Positions 12,705 through 24,693 of a stretch of DNA of 64,000 nt are shown here, in pieces (within the stretch, counting starts at the first letter, position 1; every line of letters begins with the position of its first letter). Below the pieces are notes generated by a model, which saw nothing but the letters and a program-made list of their open reading frames with translations, was not told the DNA's origin and did no database searches. The stretch is from Nitrospirales bacterium (GTDB lineage: Bacteria; Nitrospirota; Nitrospiria; Nitrospirales; UBA8639), in contig CBDCWC010000003.1 of the NCBI GenBank assembly GCA_965223295.1, positions 576,001-640,000 of the forward strand, read 5' to 3'. Position numbers and translations under genes: made by a program.

Positions 12705-12834
12705 CTACGCAGCTTCTCTTCTCCGACAGGCGATACCTTCTCAGGTTGAACATTCATAAACAGAGGTGTATTCTGGATTAGGCGCTTATACTCTACACAC
12801 GAAATTCTTCAACAACGCTCTCAATAGGGCAGCC

Positions 12835-14211
12835 ATGATTAAGCGAATTGTCGGCCTCGAATGCGAATATGGGCTCACATTTTCACCAACCGGACGTGTC
12901 TATCTCCCTATTGAAAAAATTCTCGGCTACATCTTCGAGGGGCTTATCCCCAATAGCTGGCCCTCTAATGCTTTTCTCACAAATGGCGCTCGATTCTATC
13001 AGGATACCGGGTGTCATCCCGAATATTCGACACCGGAATGCGATGACCTCATTGAGTTAGTCGTTCATGACAAGGCCGGAGAACGAATATTAGAAAATTG
13101 TCTCCCGATTGCGGAAGAACGGTTACGGGAAGAAGGACTCTCCGGAGATATTTTTATTTTCAAAAATAATACCGATTCGCTGGGCAACACCTACGGCTCA
13201 CATGAAAACTTTCTCATGCGGCGAGATGTCGATTTTTGGAAAGTGAGCGAGCAACTCATCCCGTTTTTTGTCACTCGCCAAATATATTCGGGCGCAGGAA
13301 AAATTCTTCGAGTATCCGGCAGATCTCAATTTTTTATTTCTCAACGGGCACAACATATTCATGAAAAGACTTCTTCCTCTACCACATCTTCCCGAAGTAT
13401 TATCAATACCCGAGATGAACCTCATTCTGATGCGGAGAAATACCGCCGCCTGCACATCATTCTTGGAGATTCCAACATGTCGGAATTCTCCACCTATTTA
13501 AAAGTGGGCACGGCCATGATCGTCCTCTCCATGATTGAGGATGGCTATACCATTCCCGACATCGAACTGGAAGAGCCGGTCAAAGCCATCCGCGATATTT
13601 CTCGCGACCCCACATTAAAGAAAACGGTCAAACTCGAAGACGGACGGGTCTTAACAGCCCTGGAAATTCAGCAAATATTTTGGGAGCGGGCAGGCGAATA
13701 TTTACAGACTCAACCTCCCAATAAAATATTGACCGAGGTTCATGAAGAATGGGGACGAGTCTTACGGCTTCTTGAGCATTCGCCCATGCAATTGGTCAGA
13801 GAAATCGATTGGATTACAAAAAAATGGATGTTAGAAAATTACATGGCCAACAAATCTTGTGGATGGGATGACCCACGACTCAGTATGATGGACCTTCAGT
13901 ATCATGACATCAATCGACAACGGGGACTCTTTTATGTCTTAGCCGAACGACATGGAATCAAAAAACTCGTGAATGAAGAAGCTATTGAACAGGCCAAAAC
14001 ACATCCTCCACAAACCACGCGCGCAAAAGTCCGAGGAGATTTCATCCGATTTGCCCGAGCTAAGAATCGGTCGTATACTGTTGATTGGACGTATCTCAAA
14101 TTGAATGGTTATTGGGAAGAAACGATTCTCTGTATGGATCCCTTCTGCCCCTTCAATCCCCGCGTAGATGAATTACTGAGCCAAGTACCGCACAGTCGAC
14201 TTTATCCATGA
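12835..14211 (+). CDS. pafA: Pup-protein ligase PafA
   Basis: KRIVGLECEYG, FLTNGARFYQD, HPEYSTPEC, SSSTTSSRSIINTRDEPH, PPQTTRAKVRG, VDWTYLKL. Confidence 0.95.
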   Translation: MIKRIVGLECEYGLTFSPTGRVYLPIEKILGYIFEGLIPNSWPSNAFLTNGARFYQDTGCHPEYSTPECDDLIELVVHDKAGERILENCLPIAEERLREEGLSGDIFIFKNNTDSLGNTYGSHENFLMRRDVDFWKVSEQLIPFFVTRQIYSGAGKILRVSGRSQFFISQRAQHIHEKTSSSTTSSRSIINTRDEPHSDAEKYRRLHIILGDSNMSEFSTYLKVGTAMIVLSMIEDGYTIPDIELEEPVKAIRDISRDPTLKKTVKLEDGRVLTALEIQQIFWERAGEYLQTQPPNKILTEVHEEWGRVLRLLEHSPMQLVREIDWITKKWMLENYMANKSCGWDDPRLSMMDLQYHDINRQRGLFYVLAERHGIKKLVNEEAIEQAKTHPPQTTRAKVRGDFIRFARAKNRSYTVDWTYLKLNGYWEETILCMDPFCPFNPRVDELLSQVPHSRLYP

Positions 14212-16797: not shown

Positions 16798-18405
16798 ATG
16801 AGAATCACCGCTCACCGATATCGTAACGCATGCATTCTCATCATGTGCTTATCTCTCTGTTTCCTCGGAGAAACATGGGGGCAATCGTCAAAACATCAAA
16901 TTCTCTCAGACGCCAGTTCAATCTCGAGCGAAGACGAGGCGCTCAAGGATCTCATACCTCCCGATTCAGTCATTTCTCTGACACTTCGGGATGCGGTCAT
17001 GAAGGCTCTTGAACATAATCTGGATATTCAAGTCAGCCGGCATACTAGAGATACACGCATTACCGATATTGTCTTGGAACAAGCCAAGTTTGATCCCACG
17101 GTTCAGCTTGGAACACGATATGATCGCCAGGTCTCCCCGCTCAACCGGCCTGTCTTCGGGTTTGGAGGCGTCACACTCGGCACTGGACCCGATAATTTTG
17201 ACCAAAACGACACACAGTTCAATTTGGGCTATTCGCAACGTCTCCTCACAGGAGGTTCTTACGATCTCACCTTTGATACCGGACGAAACTCTGTTGCCGG
17301 ACCAACAGGGTTTCTCTTTAACCCTTCCTACTCCAGCAACCTGTCAATCACGCTCACCCAACCTCTCCTGCGAAACTTTGGCTCCACCATCAATCAGACG
17401 TTGATCACCGTCGCTCGCAATGCGGCAGCGGTCGAACAACTGCTGTTAACCCAACAAATCATTTCCGTCATCGCGCAAGTCGAGCAGACCTATTGGGAAC
17501 TGGTCTTTGCCCGAGAAAATCTAAAAGTCGCATTTGCTACATTAAGGGCAGCTGAGGAGCTTCTAGCAAGTAACAGGGAGAAGGTGAAGGCTGGCGTCAT
17601 GGCTGAAGTGGAAGCGTTACAGGCACAGGCAGGCGTCGCAAATCGTATTGAACAAATTTTACTGGCGAAACAATCGGTTGAAGACCAGGAAGATCAATTG
17701 CGGCGATTATTAAGTCAATCAGAATGGAATTTGACCCAAACCACCCCGATCGTTCCACTGGACCAACCCATTCAACATCGATCGCGCGTTCCTCTAGAAG
17801 CGACGGTCAAACAAGCACTCAGAGACCGACCGGAAGTTTTACAAGTAAAAAAAAATCTCAACAGCGCACAGGCTCAGACTCAATTCGCCAACAATCAATT
17901 GTTGCCGGACCTCTCCTTTCAAGGCGGACTAGGTTTAGCAGGGCTGGGAAACGACCCCAATAATAGTTGGGATCGTATGATCAGCACGGATTTCTACAAT
18001 ATGGGTGGTGGGTTAACCTTGAGCTACCCCTTGGGCAATCGTGCGGCTGAAAGTCAGTACCAACGACGCACATTGGAAACGCACCAACAACAAGCTTCAC
18101 TTCTGCGTACCCGCCAACAAGTTATTTTGGATGTCAAAGAAGCCATCCGCCAGGTCGATACAAGCTACAAACGGATCCGCACGAATCAAACCGCGCGTCG
18201 CCTCTCAGAAAAACAACTCAATGCTGAGCAAGAACGCCTGCAGTTAGGACTGAGTACTACGCGAGTCGTCCTAGAATTCCAACGAGACTTGCAAACAGCC
18301 CAAAGCCTGGAACTCCGCGCGATTCTGGACTACAATCAATCCCTCTCCCGCCTCCGCCTTGCTACCGCCTCAACACTTGACTATTACAACATCCAGGTCC
18401 AATAA
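16798..18405 (+). CDS. TolC-family outer membrane efflux protein
   Basis: Signal peptide, ALEHNLDI, LTQPLLRNFG, YWELV, LLPDLS, EQERLQLGLST. Confidence 0.9.
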   Translation: MRITAHRYRNACILIMCLSLCFLGETWGQSSKHQILSDASSISSEDEALKDLIPPDSVISLTLRDAVMKALEHNLDIQVSRHTRDTRITDIVLEQAKFDPTVQLGTRYDRQVSPLNRPVFGFGGVTLGTGPDNFDQNDTQFNLGYSQRLLTGGSYDLTFDTGRNSVAGPTGFLFNPSYSSNLSITLTQPLLRNFGSTINQTLITVARNAAAVEQLLLTQQIISVIAQVEQTYWELVFARENLKVAFATLRAAEELLASNREKVKAGVMAEVEALQAQAGVANRIEQILLAKQSVEDQEDQLRRLLSQSEWNLTQTTPIVPLDQPIQHRSRVPLEATVKQALRDRPEVLQVKKNLNSAQAQTQFANNQLLPDLSFQGGLGLAGLGNDPNNSWDRMISTDFYNMGGGLTLSYPLGNRAAESQYQRRTLETHQQQASLLRTRQQVILDVKEAIRQVDTSYKRIRTNQTARRLSEKQLNAEQERLQLGLSTTRVVLEFQRDLQTAQSLELRAILDYNQSLSRLRLATASTLDYYNIQVQ

Positions 18406-18472
18406 GCTCTCCTATACCTGCTGTCTACACGAAAAACCAGCTGCTCTTGGAATTCTGCAAACATTGTTTGCA

Positions 18473-18498
18473 CCCTTCGACATGGATCAGGACTAGCC
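18473..18498. repeat. REP-like CCCTTCGAC...CAG repeat at the left edge of the island
   Basis: cccttcgacatggatcaggactagcc resembles 21252 cccttcgacaagctcagagcaggcc. Confidence 0.45.
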
Positions 18499-18682
18499 TA
18501 ACGAGTTACTCTAGGCTTCATCTAACGTCTGCCTTATTCGAGCGATAAGACAAGGTATCAATGGTTGTGGGTTTTCTGGCCGACAATGGACCTGGTCCTC
18601 TGTGAGGAAACCACGCATATAAGATGAATCACTATTGTCTGTCTTGAGAAAACTTACGAATAATGGATCTAGAAGCTAGTCA

Positions 18683-19510
18683 CTAGGCCCGCACCACTTC
18701 TTCCAATTCTGGTAGTTCACGCTGAGGAATGAGACGATTGAGGTTATTGGGTCCATGGCCAGTTTGAGAAAGTTGAAACAGTGCATCACTTTCAGGCTCG
18801 ACCGTCCCAAAGAGCCAATCATAGAGAGGCATAAATAAGGAGTAATTGGCTTCCCAGCGAGAATGATGCAAGCTATGAAAACTTGGCGTATAGACTAACC
18901 ATTTCAAGGGGGAACGTCCGTACCACTTAGGAAAAAACTCAACATTGCAATGACCAATGCTATTCAAGAAGTCAAAAACCAGGAAATAGACAAAGAACCC
19001 GAGAGGCGTCAGATGGCCCATCCACCCGACAATCAAGACCGTCAGTGCAAAAAGCACGAGGTAGCTCAAGCGTTCAAAGAGTGTAAAGGTATACCCCGAA
19101 GGCGGACTGGGAACCGTGGCTTTATGATGCTTGATATGATGCTTACGGAGCGTAGGATTTCGATGCAGAAGGATATGATAGCCATAATAGATTGGCTCCG
19201 TCACAAACATATGCGTCAACGTCAGTGCCATGAAACCAATGGCCGTCTGATTAAAGGTTGGCAGGCTTTCCCATTCAATGAAGAGGAGCACACCCCAATA
19301 CGTCAATAGTGCAAATCCTGCCGCATCCACAAAAAACGGCACGGCCCAAAATTTTTCCCGTTCGAATTGTTCTGCAGGAATAGGTATCTGGTAAATGCGT
19401 TGGCGTTCCGCAGACGCTGAACGAGAAATCCAAGAAATCAGACAGACCAACCCGACACGAAGCAAGGCCCAACTCAGAAAAAACATCCCAAAATACCAAT
19501 TGATTTCCAT
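18683..19510 (-). CDS. Membrane di-iron fatty acid hydroxylase/sterol desaturase superfamily protein, CER1/CER3-like
   Basis: His boxes HILLH, HIKHH, HSLHH; GHCNVE, YTPSFHSLHH and NYSLFMPLYDWLFGT motifs; several TM helices. Confidence 0.88.
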   Translation of the reverse strand: MEINWYFGMFFLSWALLRVGLVCLISWISRSASAERQRIYQIPIPAEQFEREKFWAVPFFVDAAGFALLTYWGVLLFIEWESLPTFNQTAIGFMALTLTHMFVTEPIYYGYHILLHRNPTLRKHHIKHHKATVPSPPSGYTFTLFERLSYLVLFALTVLIVGWMGHLTPLGFFVYFLVFDFLNSIGHCNVEFFPKWYGRSPLKWLVYTPSFHSLHHSRWEANYSLFMPLYDWLFGTVEPESDALFQLSQTGHGPNNLNRLIPQRELPELEEVVRA

Positions 19511-19527
19511 GTGAAAATTCCTCTCAT

Positions 19528-20682
19528 CTACATGGCATAGGCCATGCTAACCCGGTTTTCCTGTGAGACATGAGTAAATCGACGAGTACGCGCTTTCTTC
19601 TTTTTCTTATCAACCCGTAAATGGTCATAATACGTGCGAATAATTGAAGCCAGAGAGTCGACCTCTACGGATTCAAACACTTCAGGATGATCTTTGAGTA
19701 CGGCCCGGAGCTTGTGAGTTTGAAAATTCCAAGTTTGCGTGGAATACACTCGGTTCGGCTCAATGAGCTTTTCAAGTTTTTGTTCGAGTAAAGACTCCGC
19801 TTGTTCATAGACTAGAGTCAGACCAATTTCGTTGGCGACCGTTGAGAGCAACGTCCTTGTATTCATATTTTCGGCACTCACGAGATGGAACACTTCATGA
19901 TGCTGTCGATGCTCTGTCGTTTGCGACAACCATTGTGCTTGATTGATTACCGTATCAATCGAGACGAGATTCGTGGCTGCCTCCGCAGGAATTTGGAGAC
20001 GGATCTGAGAAGTGAGCTTGCTCAGGGTAAAGAAACCTCGAGCAAACATATACAGGCCATATGGTTTAAAATTACACCATCCGGTCTCCTGATGGCCGAT
20101 TACAATCGACGGCCGCACAATAGTCAGCGGATTTCCTCTATTGCCTTGCTGCGACGCGTGAGACAATGTCTGTTCTGTGAGGAATTTTGTGACTTGGTAG
20201 GAGTTGCCTAACACGGGAAGGAGATGCAAGGCTTCATCAACATCAGCCCCAATATTCCCTCCAACATACGCTGTCGACATGTAGTAGAACCGGTTGGCAC
20301 GAGCACTTGTTTCCGAAAACTTTTGATAGAGCAACACACTATTTCGCACATTATTCTCATACGAATTTGCGAGATTCTCTGAGGCATAATTCATGTCCGC
20401 CGCACAATGCCATACCTCGACAACCTCTTCCCAAAATGTCAATCGATCTAATTCATGAGAGAAATTTTCGTGATCAATATCTTCAATATGTAAATTCTTG
20501 AGCACCTGGGGAGACACATCGTAGCCAAATCCACGCATTGCCGCCGTAATGCTTTGCAGCGTCCGACTTCCATCAGGGTCATTTCGTGACAAGCAAATCA
20601 CCTTTTTCCCACTCGCCAGAAACGCACCTGCTAACGCGCCGCCAATAAACCCAGTACCGCCGGTAATAAGAATATAAGCCAT
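19528..20682 (-). CDS. Extended SDR, fatty-acyl-CoA/thioester reductase (male-sterility NAD_binding_4)-like
   Basis: ITGGTGFIG, WHCAA, YMSTAYVGG, YQVTK (YxxxK), IVRPSIVIG. Confidence 0.85.
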   Translation of the reverse strand: MAYILITGGTGFIGGALAGAFLASGKKVICLSRNDPDGSRTLQSITAAMRGFGYDVSPQVLKNLHIEDIDHENFSHELDRLTFWEEVVEVWHCAADMNYASENLANSYENNVRNSVLLYQKFSETSARANRFYYMSTAYVGGNIGADVDEALHLLPVLGNSYQVTKFLTEQTLSHASQQGNRGNPLTIVRPSIVIGHQETGWCNFKPYGLYMFARGFFTLSKLTSQIRLQIPAEAATNLVSIDTVINQAQWLSQTTEHRQHHEVFHLVSAENMNTRTLLSTVANEIGLTLVYEQAESLLEQKLEKLIEPNRVYSTQTWNFQTHKLRAVLKDHPEVFESVEVDSLASIIRTYYDHLRVDKKKKKARTRRFTHVSQENRVSMAYAM

Positions 20683-20816
20683 GATGACTATTCTCTCCTT
20701 CCCAATTTTTTTACAAAAACTCGTACAGATGCCGGAATCGTAGAGAGAGGTTCTCGTGGTATCGAAAACTGGTTGCGCCTATCTTTGATTTCTTTGTTCT
20801 CTGTATTGGACATGAA

Positions 20817-20832
20817 AGCAACAGCTATGCCA
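20817..20832 (-). promoter_or_regulatory. Sigma-54 (-24/-12) promoter for the reductase/desaturase operon
   Basis: Minus strand reads TGGCATAGCTGTTGCT with correct GG-N10-GC spacing, about 135 bp upstream of the start. Palindrome tttcagatttttgaaa at 20995-21010 may be a UAS. Confidence 0.7.
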
Positions 20833-21220
20833 TGACCAATCGCATTCAGAAATTTGGCGTGATACTTTGGGAAAGGGTTGTGGAAAAAAAGAAAAAGCTG
20901 AGCACGAAAAGCGTCAATAAGTCCGTGAGGGCAAGGGACTGGATTGATGCCGATGACATGAACCGGACGACGAGAATCCAAACCAGATGCCTCGTTTCAG
21001 ATTTTTGAAATTGTTATGACAAAAATTTGGCCTGCTAACGTATCTTTGCAACAATGCGCGACAGACTGTTCCTTTCTGGCGGCTTCCTGAAGATATTTTC
21101 ATGATTGTCGAACAACGCTCATTCTCCTACGTCGAGAGAATCCAAAGCTCAAAAGTTATCCAAATAGATACAGAGCATATCTATTTGGATACGAATTCGT
21201 CTTTTCATATCACCTCTACC

Positions 21221-21276
21221 AGAGCTCTTGAAAAAAGCCACCAGCGGCCTGCCCTTCGACAAGCTCAGAGCAGGCC
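21221..21276. repeat. Partial MITE left end plus REP-like hairpin
   Basis: gagctcttgaaaaaagccaccagcgg (as at 40176) followed by ggcctgcccttcgacaagctcagagcaggcc. Confidence 0.6.
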
Positions 21277-21593
21277 ATTTGAATCGGTCCGTAGATGATG
21301 ACTGGCAAGGATTTCCTAACGAAATACGGCCTTTGATCTCCTCATTAGTCAACACTCTCCTTACTAGATATGTCTTCCATTGTATACGCTGGTTGCACCC
21401 TTGAGTTGATTGAGCTTCGATCGAGGTGCAAGAAGAGAACTCTGTGAATTCTTCCATTATTTGAAACATTCAACCCGCACATGTGAACCAATATCCTTCA
21501 ACTCTTTGACAAGAACTCCCAGTTCCCTGAGGCTCACCCCTCCTGCTACCATAAGATAACGACACGGCATCCCTATTCATGTGATTTGCCCTC

Positions 21594-22730
21594 ATGTCTG
21601 GAAAGGTCTTATCCACAGTTTTTCTACTCATTCTGGCTTCGGGCATTGGCCTCTATGCCTATCTGCCTGATTTTCAATCGGATGCTTCGGAAAAATCCCA
21701 ACTGGAAACCGTTGAAGTAGTGCGCAGTTCTCTGCAAACGCGAGTATCAGAAACCGGAACAATCCAGCCTTCAAAAACAATCGAAATTAAATCGCAATTT
21801 TCCGGGGAAGTTGCACAATTGTTTGTTTCAAGTGGGAAGCCTGTCAAAAAGGGCGAAGTGCTGGCGATTATTCGTCAGGAATCGATCCAAGCTCGCCAAG
21901 TTGCGCAACTTCGGGCCGCTATTCAAGAAGAACGTCTCAATGTGAATACCGCCCAACGGGAATGGGTTCGCTCTCAAGCCTTATTTAAGAAAGGCTTCAT
22001 TGCCCAGCAGGCCCTGGAGAACGCCGAGCATGAATACCAACGTACATTGGTCCGCTTAGAACTGGCCGAACGCCAATTGCTACTAGCGCTAGGTGGGAAT
22101 AAAGAGTTATTTGAACGTTACCAGGAAAACCCAACACAGAGCAGTCGTCCGGAAGAATTCCAGGTCCGCTCTCCAACGAATGGCACCGTATTAGAGGTTC
22201 TTGTCAATCCCGGAGAGATTATTACTTCAGGAACGGCCACATTTGGTGGAGGCACCGTGCTCATGAAAGTAGCGGATCTTTCACGCATGATCGTCAAAGC
22301 CAAAATCAACGAAGTGAATGTCCCACGAGTGGCCGTTGGTCAAGAAGTTGATATTCGCTTAGACGCCCTTCCAGACCAACACTTCAAAGGACGAGTAAAC
22401 GCGATCGCTGCGCAGGGTGTGAAAGAAGAAAATATCGTCACCTATGATGTGACGATTGCCATCTTAGATTCAAACCCGGCTCTCAAACCCATGCTCACAG
22501 CTAATGTAGATATTGTGACGAGGCAATTGGACGATGTGCTCACCATCCCATTGAATGTCCTCAAAGTAAAAAATGGGGATGATATCGTCGAAGTGCTCAC
22601 AAATGGAACATCAAAAACTCAGAAAGTACGAGTCGCATTTCGAACCGATACCGAAGCAGTCATTACGAAAGGCCTCCAAGAACATGATCAAGTCGTGATC
22701 CCAAAATTTAAGCCAACCACCGAAAATTAA
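21594..22730 (+). CDS. Efflux periplasmic adaptor (MacA-like)
   Basis: N-terminal TM, lipoyl half motifs (IKSQFSGEV, VRSPTNGTV), coiled hairpin, INEVNV. Confidence 0.9.
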   Translation: MSGKVLSTVFLLILASGIGLYAYLPDFQSDASEKSQLETVEVVRSSLQTRVSETGTIQPSKTIEIKSQFSGEVAQLFVSSGKPVKKGEVLAIIRQESIQARQVAQLRAAIQEERLNVNTAQREWVRSQALFKKGFIAQQALENAEHEYQRTLVRLELAERQLLLALGGNKELFERYQENPTQSSRPEEFQVRSPTNGTVLEVLVNPGEIITSGTATFGGGTVLMKVADLSRMIVKAKINEVNVPRVAVGQEVDIRLDALPDQHFKGRVNAIAAQGVKEENIVTYDVTIAILDSNPALKPMLTANVDIVTRQLDDVLTIPLNVLKVKNGDDIVEVLTNGTSKTQKVRVAFRTDTEAVITKGLQEHDQVVIPKFKPTTEN

Positions 22731-22753
22731 TCACTCCTTCAGTTACATGGTCA

Positions 22754-23464
22754 ATGCTCATTACCTTACGCCAAATCAATAAAGTCTACTTCACAGGTGA
22801 CATTGAAGTTCATGCTCTGCGGAACGTGAGTATTACTATTGAGTCCGGCGAGTTTGTGGCGATTATCGGGCAATCGGGTAGCGGGAAAACAACATTGCTA
22901 GATATTTTAGGCTGTCTCAGTCATCCCACACATGGAGAATATTGGCTCAACGGCGCGCACATTCATACCTTGCCCGACTCGGAACTCACGACCATTCGCA
23001 ATCAACAAATTGGGTTTATCTTTCAGACCTTCCACCTCTTACCACGCAAATCTGCCTTAGAAAATGTGCAACTCCCGCTTATGTATGCTGGAACCAACCG
23101 CGCTCAACAACAAGAACGTGCCCTTGAATTACTCACCATGGTGGGGCTTGAAGATCGAGTGCATCATCATAGCAACCAATTATCAGGTGGGCAGCAGCAA
23201 CGAGTCGCCATTGCCCGCGCCCTAGCCAACCATCCTTCATTACTTCTCGCAGACGAACCGACTGGCAATTTGGACAGCCAATCTGGACACGAAATTTTAT
23301 CAATATTCGAAACCCTCCATCGTCAGGGACAAACCATTGTCATGATCACACATGACCCACTGATCGCTCAACGCGCTAGTCGGCGTATCACACTCTTAGA
23401 CGGACGAGTGCTATCTGATGAATCGACTGCATCCCCGGCACTAGAAGTGCTTCAAGAAATCTAG
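22754..23464 (+). CDS. ABC ATPase, MacB/LolD type
   Basis: [33 protein letters not shown]. Confidence 0.95.
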
Positions 23465-23472
23465 AGACCGCC

Positions 23473-24693
23473 ATGCTTGGAGCCATTTTTCGTGATGCCC
23501 TAAAAAATCTGTCTGGCAATATGCTGCGTTCCGGCCTGACCATGCTAGGCGTAATTATTGGTGTCGCTTCGGTCATTGCCATGATGGCCATTGTAGAAGG
23601 TGGACAGGTCTGGTTGGTCAGTTCTATAGAACGCTTAGGCACCAATCTGTTGTTTGTTTGGAAAAAACGGTTGACCATGGAAGAAAAACGGATGTTTGCC
23701 GGACGAAATCTTCAGCTGCGTTATGACGACACCTTGGCTGTTCGAGACCACTTCCCCGAACTCACCGTTGCACCTATCATCGAAATTGATGGGCAAGTCA
23801 AAGCTGGAGAACGAGATTACAGTGGAAGCATCACTGGCACATCACCCGAATTTAGCGAGATCCGCAACTTTCGACCAGCGGTTGGACGTTTTTTGCAAAC
23901 TACTGATGTTCATACCTGGAACCGAGCCGCGGTGCTCGGAAAAACCATTGCAGAGGTCCTGTATGGATCGCAAGCGGCGGTAGGACAGCAACTGAAAATT
24001 GGGGAGCATCGATTTACGGTGGTTGGTGTCATGGAACCCAAAGGAGAAGTCTATGGACAAGATCGGGACGAAATGATTTTTATTCCGGTGACCACCGCTC
24101 TACGTTTTTTTAAAGGCACGGACAAAATTGGGTCAATGGTCATTCACGTGCCGAACCGAGATGATATGGAGGAAGTCACACATCAGCTTCATCAATTTCT
24201 TATCCAACGTCATGACGGCGTTGATGATATTCGCGTGCGTAATCAGGGCGATTTTCTCGGAGCCATCGACCGAACCATTTGGACTTTTCGCATTGTGCTT
24301 GGCGGAATTGCCATTGTGGCATTATTGGTGGGAGGCATTGGGATTATGAATATAATGCTGGTCACGGTCACAGAACGTACCCGCGAAATTGGCTTACGGA
24401 AAGCCATTGGCGCGAAGCGCCGTGACATTCTGCTCCAATTTCTCATTGAATCTACCACGATCAGTGTGATTGGGGGATGCTTTGGAGTCATCCTGGGAAT
24501 CTTTGCCGCCTATGGCTTTGGAAATTTTGTCGCGCAATCCATGCCTGGCGGAGGTGATTGGGGCGCCGTCATCAAACCCGCCGCCATTGCCATCGCCTTT
24601 GTGTTTGCCGTCAGTGTGGGAATTCTATTTGGACTGTTCCCGGCCATGAAAGCCTCAAAACTTGACCCCGCCGAAGCCCTGCGTTACCAATAG
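23473..24693 (+). CDS. MacB-type ABC permease
   Basis: RSGLTMLGVIIGV, GGIGIMNIMLVTVTERTREIGLRKAIGA, LDPAEALRY. Confidence 0.95.
   Translation: MLGAIFRDALKNLSGNMLRSGLTMLGVIIGVASVIAMMAIVEGGQVWLVSSIERLGTNLLFVWKKRLTMEEKRMFAGRNLQLRYDDTLAVRDHFPELTVAPIIEIDGQVKAGERDYSGSITGTSPEFSEIRNFRPAVGRFLQTTDVHTWNRAAVLGKTIAEVLYGSQAAVGQQLKIGEHRFTVVGVMEPKGEVYGQDRDEMIFIPVTTALRFFKGTDKIGSMVIHVPNRDDMEEVTHQLHQFLIQRHDGVDDIRVRNQGDFLGAIDRTIWTFRIVLGGIAIVALLVGGIGIMNIMLVTVTERTREIGLRKAIGAKRRDILLQFLIESTTISVIGGCFGVILGIFAAYGFGNFVAQSMPGGGDWGAVIKPAAIAIAFVFAVSVGILFGLFPAMKASKLDPAEALRYQ

Follow-up and report, generated by a model that had tools for sequence, protein, structure and literature searches.

A CER1/CER3-type di-iron protein encoded beside a thioester-reductase-like enzyme in Nitrospirales: a candidate bacterial route to hydrocarbons

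Introduction

What would a bacterium make with a membrane di-iron protein that resembles the plant proteins CER1 and CER3, encoded directly behind a reductase gene? The question is raised by two adjacent genes in a 64,000-nt stretch of DNA (the window, meaning that whole stretch) from a Nitrospirales bacterium (assembly GCA_965223295.1, contig CBDCWC010000003.1, positions 576,001 to 640,000), whose genome comprises 3.78 Mb in 3 contigs. Known bacterial hydrocarbon routes include AAR/ADO, OleABCD, OleT, and UndA/UndB. The present analysis suggests, with a probability of roughly 0.55 judged from sequence, that the two genes form a cassette leading from an acyl thioester to an aldehyde and from the aldehyde to a Cn-1 hydrocarbon, a route not yet described in bacteria. 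If so, bacteria would have a further hydrocarbon route, in which the CER1-type membrane enzyme and the reductase are distinct proteins. A search of the literature returned no paper describing such a bacterial pair.

The cassette is organized as follows; gene 1 encodes an extended short-chain dehydrogenase/reductase (SDR).

19528..20682, minus strand: gene 1, 384-aa extended SDR of the NAD_binding_4 / thioester-reductase type (open reading frame and family matches)
19511..19527, minus strand: 17-bp spacer carrying the ribosome-binding site of gene 2 (read from the sequence)
18683..19510, minus strand: gene 2, 275-aa membrane di-iron protein of the FA_hydroxylase superfamily, CER1/CER3 N-terminal-domain type (PF04116, tree, and motifs)

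The two-gene operon with a 17-bp gap that the original prediction had proposed for this locus is reproduced by these open reading frames, and in the window sequence a purine-rich ribosome-binding site precedes the ATG of each gene.

The di-iron protein and its likeness to CER1 and CER3

Gene 2 matches PF04116 with 76.4 bits (cut-off 31, E 3.6e-21) over model positions 2–132 of 132. Its His boxes are H112-x3-H116, H125-x2-H128-H129, and H212-x2-H215-H216, joined by H187, and these nine residues are invariant in a 21-sequence alignment. The AlphaFold2 model is a helical membrane protein with a pLDDT of 93.2. The three His boxes and the motif strings quoted in the original prediction are all exactly present in the protein. 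In the alignment, YTPSFHSLHH and NYSLFMPLYD are identical to the CER1 rows and GHCNVE is identical to the CER3 rows, whereas most outgroup rows read NYG there.

The database searches lead to the same family. A word-indexed search is headed by 31 close relatives with 59–100% query coverage, one of which is named, as a Nitrospirales 'sterol desaturase family protein'; a eukaryotic transcript follows, and then a Taxus protein with PF04116 and PF12076. All eight of the longer proteins matched by gene 2 carry this pair of domains, including Citrus CER1 (E 1.3e-33, 36% identity over 87% of the query), Lotus CER1-like, and Sesamum CER3. Furthermore, phmmer over 1.84 billion representatives gives 1379 matches at E ≤1e-3, with 29 at 1e-30 or better. 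A Pfam scan covering 91 of the best 150 of these 1379 matches places CER1-like_C over its cut-off in 25 of the 91, with 4 more just below, and Cyt-b5 is also present in 2 of the scanned CER1-like_C relatives. Gene 2 itself ends at residue 275 and contains PF04116 only. Because the WAX2/CER1-like_C part (PF12076) is absent, the protein is best described as a homologue of the CER1/3 N-terminal domain and not as a member of the fused family. PF12076 is not matched anywhere in the host genome, a result of little weight since the same search matched no control genome. Automatic JGI annotation labels P0027, P0034, and P0050 'aldehyde decarbonylase', a sign that the likeness is already picked up by annotation pipelines; the orthologue P0019 bears the NCBI name 'sterol desaturase family'.

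A different assignment would make the pair an envelope-lipid modification system, in which the di-iron enzyme oxidizes or hydroxylates the acyl chain of an outer-membrane lipid (lipid A, ornithine lipid, or another) and the reductase acts on the same lipid or its precursor. The superfamily is indeed best known for lipid hydroxylases, the sole weak NCBIfam match of gene 2 is OlsE (NF052566), and the nearest solved fold is that of Scs7p (4zr0), a sphingolipid alpha-hydroxylase. However, the OlsE match reaches 20.2 bits against a cut-off of 475, which leaves gene 2 outside that family, and the Scs7p match is the best of a Foldseek search against the PDB that gave nothing significant (E 0.77). With phmmer against the PDB nothing relevant is found for the hydroxylase, and the PDB copies searched yielded no CER1 structure. 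The gene neighbourhoods that bear on this alternative are taken up below.

Among the relatives, the CER1/3-type proteins P0054 and P0070 have a cytochrome b5 domain added at the C-terminus, and P0150 (1098 aa) combines an NAD-binding/CER1-like_C region with FA_desaturase and FA_hydroxylase.

Phylogeny of the hydroxylase domain

The hydroxylase domain was taken from 178 sequences, from which 45 covering less than 72% of the model were dropped, and 7 Nitrospirales paralogues were added. FastTree was run on the 140 rows and IQ-TREE (LG+C20+F+G4) on 70 rows hand-picked from those 140, and the two trees agree. A 52-row clade (support 95/95) contains all 25 CER1-like_C rows, a reductase–hydroxylase fusion (described below), and a 16-row bacterial clade (90/86) with members from Nitrospirales, Gammaproteobacteria, Legionellaceae, and Parachlamydiales. 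Outside the 52-row clade lie the 'Delta7-sterol 5-desaturase' P0122, the 'sterol desaturase family' cluster of P0154, and the Nitrospirales paralogues. Gene 2 is placed with the hydrocarbon-forming clade, which counts against an envelope-lipid role. The search ranking, this clade, and the motifs agree with the earlier view that gene 2 is nearer to CER1/CER3 than to a generic sterol desaturase, and the grouping with ERG3/OlsE-type proteins that would have contradicted it is not seen: the protein falls among the CER1-like_C proteins, with the rows labelled sterol desaturase outside.

Bacterial 'sterol desaturase family' proteins and OlsE share PF04116 and the membrane His-box architecture with gene 2, but they stand outside the clade that unites CER1/3 with the bacterial rows and have no adjacent reductase. 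The 'sterol desaturase'-type paralogues of Nitrospirales likewise have none. The second FA_hydroxylase of the host (400 aa, G000:C2:15719-16123, locus L013, open reading frame 829–2028, domain at residues 225–359) falls outside the CER1-type clade as a remote paralogue with a long branch.

The reductase

Gene 1 matches Pfam NAD_binding_4 (PF07993) with 87.3 bits (cut-off 20.1, E 1.2e-24). It is the best NAD_binding_4 match of the genome and, among the matches listed, the only one that spans the model end to end (1–256 of 258). The thioester-reductase model TIGR01746 is matched with 71.8 bits, below its cut-off of 213.35 (E 6e-20). The PDB structure matched best is 4u7w, the terminal reductase domain of MxaA (E 6e-6), and in the alignment to it the GxxGxxG motif, T137, Y162 and K166 (Tyr-x3-Lys), and R33 of CL(S/V)R all correspond. 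Both the GxxGxxG motif and the arginine, as well as the Thr/Tyr/Lys residues, are invariant in 7 orthologues; the orthologues share 59–82% identity and come from Nitrospirales loci. The fatty acyl reductase/thioester-reductase motifs originally noticed in gene 1 are substantiated by the family match and by the residues aligned to MxaA.

Could the SDR instead deliver an alcohol? It might form a fatty alcohol in a four-electron reduction, or an aldehyde, after which the di-iron enzyme would hydroxylate or desaturate the product to give diols, hydroxy-aldehydes, or unsaturated alcohols. NAD_binding_4 does include alcohol-forming fatty acyl reductases, its Pfam name is 'Male sterility protein', and the product of the reductase is not readable from the sequence. 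Against this, the di-iron protein has as its nearest characterized relatives enzymes that turn aldehydes into hydrocarbons, according to the available text of PMC13326499, and the fusion and the varied aldehyde-forming partners described below point to the hand-over of an aldehyde. A wax-ester synthase (WS/DGAT) is not found in the genome, a result of little weight since the control genomes are also unmatched. An alcohol-based pathway of this kind is judged quite unlikely.

Demethylation of a sterol or hopanoid in the manner of ERG25/ERG26 would pair a di-iron methyl oxidase with an SDR acting as a 3-beta-hydroxysteroid dehydrogenase/decarboxylase. The same enzyme superfamilies are paired in eukaryotic C4-demethylation, and the SDR shows weak NCBIfam matches to HpnA (1.9e-11) and SdmB (1.7e-4). 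However, NAD_binding_4 is its best family and the Pfam scan gives no 3Beta_HSD match at E 0.01 or better; in addition, the 'sterol desaturase'-type rows stand apart from the di-iron protein in the tree, and no cyclase or other triterpenoid gene lies near the pair. This makes demethylation very improbable.

That gene 1 might be a WAX2 domain that had become detached was considered and rejected, since BLASTP of the SDR against CER1 showed no likeness to the WAX2 part. The original description of a split reductase plus decarbonylase holds insofar as WAX2 is absent and a separate reductase lies upstream; 'split' is imprecise because that reductase is an unrelated NAD_binding_4 enzyme and not a split-off WAX2. 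Relatives of P0258, an SDR homologue with 36% identity, were sought in 400 genomes of the class of G044 and found in none of the 400.

Conservation of the pair in Nitrospirales

Of 25 genomes from the genus, 6 (the window's own included) have an orthologue of gene 2 at E 1e-124 or better. No orthologue was found in the 16 genomes from other genera of the order; their matches are paralogues with E 1e-12 to 1e-6. The reductase lies directly upstream in all five of the other genus-mates that bear an orthologue, and likewise directly upstream of the FA_hydroxylase gene in 8/8 Nitrospirales loci from a species-level genome collection; the set of five and the set of eight probably overlap. The same arrangement is seen in the metagenome locus L048.

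The surroundings of the pair differ from locus to locus. Only L015–L018 share those of the window, where MacB and MacA lie to one side of the pair and TolC lies to the other. In L019–L022 the neighbours are unrelated and include a group II intron reverse transcriptase and an IS110 transposase. Since the pair is kept while its surroundings are unrelated in 4 of the 8 loci, it behaves as a patchily distributed cassette.

Partners and fusions in other bacteria

Outside Nitrospirales, 12 bacterial loci with usable flanks encode a short hydroxylase free of WAX2, and in 10 of them a thioester-reducing enzyme is found within 2 kb of the di-iron gene. In six (L023, L024, L027, L031, L049, and L050), the partner is an NAD_binding_4 reductase. 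The individual arrangements are listed below.

L023: stand-alone NAD_binding_4 reductase directly upstream (261.7 bits against the TIGR01746 cut-off of 213)
L027, L031: NAD_binding_4 reductase as a convergent neighbour, FadL/TodX alongside
L049: AMP-binding + NAD_binding_4 protein of 1046 aa, overlapping the start of the hydroxylase
L050: in order, hydroxylase, AMP-binding, PP-binding + NAD_binding_4
L024: C-terminus of a reductase at the contig edge
L025, L028, L052, L058: HMG-CoA-reductase-family gene overlapping upstream, FadL/TodX downstream
L029, L051: no recognizable reductase

In the genome of L024, the end of another contig carries AMP-binding and the first half of NAD_binding_4, which suggests that the two pieces belong to one gene. 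The HMG-CoA-reductase-family partners score 289.6 against a TIGR00533 cut-off of 441.8, and the Parachlamydiales genome of L025 contains no strong NAD_binding_4 protein. A FadL/TodX outer-membrane channel, of the kind that passes hydrophobic compounds, adjoins the hydroxylase gene in L025, L027, L028, L031, L052, and L058.

The reductase partners are not mutually orthologous, with at most 24% identity or only shared motifs between them, which implies that the association was assembled repeatedly, with thioester-to-aldehyde reduction as the common chemistry. In addition, the 664-aa metagenomic protein P0074 (in a cluster of 5 with P0205–P0208) fuses NAD_binding_4 to the hydroxylase in the order of the operon, and the tree places it in the eukaryote-type clade. 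Most of the other 74 metagenome loci are FA_hydroxylase–WAX2 fusions of the eukaryotic type, as recognized with local hidden Markov models. The conservation of the gene pair, which had been proposed as a check on the original prediction, extends in this way from the Nitrospirales loci to non-orthologous partners in other phyla and to a fusion. The hydrocarbon reading draws on this pattern: a CER1/3-type domain stands alone beside thioester-to-aldehyde enzymes whose identity varies while their chemistry remains constant.

The neighbourhoods also carry the remaining evidence on an envelope-lipid role. LpxD, BamA, and Skp are encoded nearby in L025, L028, and L052, LpxA and PMT_2 in L049, PMT_2 in L020 and L021, and TolC and MacAB in the window. 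However, the TolC/MacAB surroundings result from insertion into an existing operon (see below), the neighbourhoods vary among the Nitrospirales loci, and the AMP-binding, carrier, and reductase partners in L049 and L050 activate and reduce free carboxylates, a capacity that hydroxylation does not need. Taken with the results for gene 2 itself, the modification of an envelope lipid is unlikely.

The same AMP-binding and carrier partners bear on a fourth possibility, cleavage of ether lipids in the manner of alkylglycerol monooxygenase (AGMO), in which an alkylglycerol would be cleaved by the di-iron enzyme and the fatty aldehyde so released would be reduced by the SDR. AGMO belongs to the same superfamily and yields an aldehyde, but these partners make aldehydes and do not consume them. 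Furthermore, no ether-lipid synthesis genes lie near the pair, and the tree places gene 2 with CER1/3. Of all the alternatives this is the least credible, with hardly any probability left to it.

In a Parachlamydiales-type arrangement, a three-gene unit follows LpxD and consists of a divergent HMG-CoA-reductase-family gene, the CER1-type hydroxylase, and a FadL/TodX channel (L025:4827-8211, L028:4719-8129, L052:2743-6132, and L058:1784-5193). PMT_2, of the ArnT-like glycosyltransferase family, is found near the cassette at L020:2178-3905 and L021:1372-3093 in Nitrospirales and at L049:4773-6296 in a distant bacterial locus. Fragments of CER1-type hydroxylases also occur on very short contigs, namely L026 (1.9 kb, Flagellimonas assembly) and L030 (1 kb, Steroidobacter assembly), which may be contaminants in isolate assemblies.

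Proposed function

In the proposed route, the SDR encoded by gene 1 would convert acyl-CoA or acyl-ACP to a fatty aldehyde with NADPH, and the di-iron enzyme encoded by gene 2 would cleave C1 off this aldehyde, leaving a Cn-1 alkane or alkene as the product. As a self-contained unit, the cassette would work like the CER1/CER3 system, with the aldehyde-forming WAX2 domain replaced by an unrelated reductase. Products of C15–C17 would be expected from bacterial acyl pools, and FadL/TodX or other exporters may move the product. We infer the hydrocarbon step from homology together with gene association; what is inferred also covers the substrates, the aldehyde as intermediate, the hydrocarbon as product, the electron donor, the dependence on sigma-54, and any export of the product.

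The homologous eukaryotic domains have been examined directly. According to the available text of PMC13326499 (2026), hydrocarbons are formed by the N-terminal half of algal CER1/3 and AtCER1, the His-box domain, and mutants of its His motifs abolish hydrocarbon formation in both proteins. The C-terminal WAX2 domain is described there as AAR-like, with a catalytic Cys and an NADPH site, and as the aldehyde-forming half. The N-terminal domain takes aldehydes supplied in trans by AtCER3 (same text). Complex prediction for the hydroxylase and the SDR gave a score of 0.00 in two runs; as the controls were not folded, this counts neither for nor against binding.

Several points weigh against a hydrocarbon-forming cassette. 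Hydroxylation, desaturation, and ether cleavage are also carried out within the FA_hydroxylase superfamily. The genes near the cassette include none for an electron donor; CER1 works with cytochrome b5. The SDR is a divergent member of its family (71.8 bits against the TIGR01746 cut-off of 213) and could, as far as its sequence can be read, be alcohol-forming. In 2 of the 12 loci outside Nitrospirales (L029 and L051), no recognizable reductase lies within 2 kb. Several bacterial loci sit among envelope-lipid genes (LpxD, LpxA, BamA, and PMT_2), a setting that membrane-lipid modification fits equally. The bacterial clade shares only 33–40% identity with the experimentally characterized eukaryotic clade, and it is sister to the eukaryote-type clade (34 rows, 91/58) and not nested within it. 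Finally, the trees contain no canonical ERG3, ERG25, AGMO, or FA2H, so that the exclusion of these families depends on their absence from the top 150 matches and on the labelled outgroups.

Comparison with known systems

Like the plant CER1/CER3 complex and the bifunctional algal CER1/3 proteins (PF04116 + PF12076), the cassette contains the homologous di-iron domain (33–37% identity), with the same His boxes, YTPSFHSLHH, and NYSLFMPLYD, in a supported clade. In those systems a thioester-to-aldehyde reductase is coupled to an aldehyde-to-hydrocarbon enzyme (available text of PMC13326499), and for the cassette the same coupling is proposed from the genes. There are differences as well. The WAX2/CER1-like_C domain is missing from the cassette, and the unrelated NAD_binding_4 reductase encoded upstream takes its place. 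In addition, the cassette is bacterial, lacks cytochrome b5, is preceded by a sigma-54-type promoter, and belongs to a sister clade.

The cyanobacterial AAR/ADO system resembles the cassette in its two genes and in the proposed two-step path from acyl thioester through aldehyde to Cn-1 alkane. The two systems are unrelated, however: ADO is a soluble ferritin-like di-iron protein (PF11266), whereas the second enzyme of the cassette is an integral-membrane His-box protein and its reductase is an SDR and not AAR. ADO (PF11266) was not matched in the host genome, in a search whose control matched Synechococcus elongatus. Compared with carboxylic acid reductases and terminal thioester-reductase domains (TIGR01746, e.g., MxaA), gene 1 and the partner reductases have the same fold and catalytic residues, and L049 and L050 have the full set of adenylation, carrier, and reductase domains; the SDR of the window differs in standing alone and in falling below the TIGR01746 cut-off.

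A wider interpretation can be put forward only tentatively. The pair would exemplify a third, membrane-type bacterial route to alkanes or alkenes, built on a stand-alone CER1-type decarbonylase that was repeatedly coupled to whichever thioester-to-aldehyde enzyme was available (a thioester reductase, an adenylation–carrier–reductase protein, an HMG-CoA-reductase-like enzyme, or the eukaryotic AAR-like WAX2). The bacterial clade would then represent the pre-fusion state of eukaryotic CER1/3 and hence of plant cuticular alkane synthesis. In the published scheme, as given in the available text of PMC13510223 (citing Chaudhary 2021), a WAX2-only prokaryotic precursor was fused with a generic ERG3/FAH protein, and that text makes no mention of a CER1-type hydroxylase clade in bacteria. 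The words 'bacteria' and 'prokaryot' are absent from PMC13326499. The bacterial clade bears on the origin of plant cuticular alkanes: bacteria possess a hydroxylase that is specifically of the CER1 type and that already has a reductase as its partner. Of the relation to the CER1/3 ancestor that had been considered possible from the start, the joining of the bacterial to the eukaryotic clade is upheld by the tree; the position is that of a sister group only.

According to the available text of PMC5414326, in vitro activity had been shown, as of 2017, only for cyanobacterial ADOs and not for CER1. If the proposed function is correct, gene 2 would be a 275-aa prokaryotic version, free of WAX2, of an enzyme that is hard to study, and it could open the way to work on the mechanism (C1 co-product and electron donor) and to bio-alkane engineering.

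Promoter and genomic setting of the cassette

Upstream of gene 1, and around the cassette as a whole, the following features are recognized.

20817..20832, minus strand: sigma-54-type -24/-12 element TGGCATAGCTGTTGCT, about 135 nt upstream of the gene 1 ATG
20994..21010, minus strand: conserved 17-nt block TTTCAAAAATCTGAAAC, partly palindromic, a candidate enhancer-binding-protein site
18406..21593, no strand assigned: segment of about 3.2 kb between the TolC-like and macA-like genes, holding the cassette and its regulatory region (from pair-less genus-mates)

The -24/-12 element, read on the minus strand from 20832 to 20817, is the sole match to TGGCAY-N5-TTGCW in the 64-kb window. Since 0.13 matches are expected per window and 13 of 100 shuffles contain at least one, this single match is weak when taken alone. 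In L015, L016, and L019 the same element is found again where the DNA upstream of the SDR gene aligns, and L020 and L021 have GG-N10-GC variants in its place, while the flanking DNA diverges. The host genome encodes rpoN (sigma-54). By sequence, the locus has the features of a sigma-54 promoter in its GG-N10-GC element (TGGCAC-N5-TTGCW), the distance, the conservation, and the presence of rpoN, and the cassette is probably sigma-54-controlled. The near-consensus sigma-54 promoter of the original prediction is thus retained. Further upstream, TTTCAAAAATCTGAAAC is unique in the window and is matched in 0 of 100 shuffles; its spacing to the -24/-12 element, 168–179 bp, is kept in L015, L016, and L019, and the block is a candidate site for an activator of the enhancer-binding-protein type.

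The cassette is flanked by a TolC-like outer-membrane gene (16798–18405) and by macA/macB-like genes (21594–24693). In 5/5 genus-mates that lack the pair, the TolC-like gene is the direct neighbour of the MacA-like gene, at a distance of about 110–340 bp, and the genes that flank the cassette in the window make up a single contiguous cluster. Relative to these genomes the pair is therefore an insertion of about 3.2 kb, including about 0.9 kb of upstream DNA. The intergenic DNA has diverged too far from that of the pair-less genomes for the borders of the insertion to be mapped. An imperfect 22-nt direct repeat (77%; 18456–18477 and 21381–21402), whose copies end in the common sequence TTGCACCCTT, lies near both ends of the insert and may be a trace of the insertion event or due to chance. 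The long region upstream of the cassette also contains TATCCAAATAGATA / TATCTATTTGGATA, a perfect inverted repeat of 14 nt whose arms are 7 nt apart (21157–21191). Elsewhere in the window, the open reading frame at 12766–14211 may, judging from its sequence, encode a Pup-ligase/deamidase-type protein.

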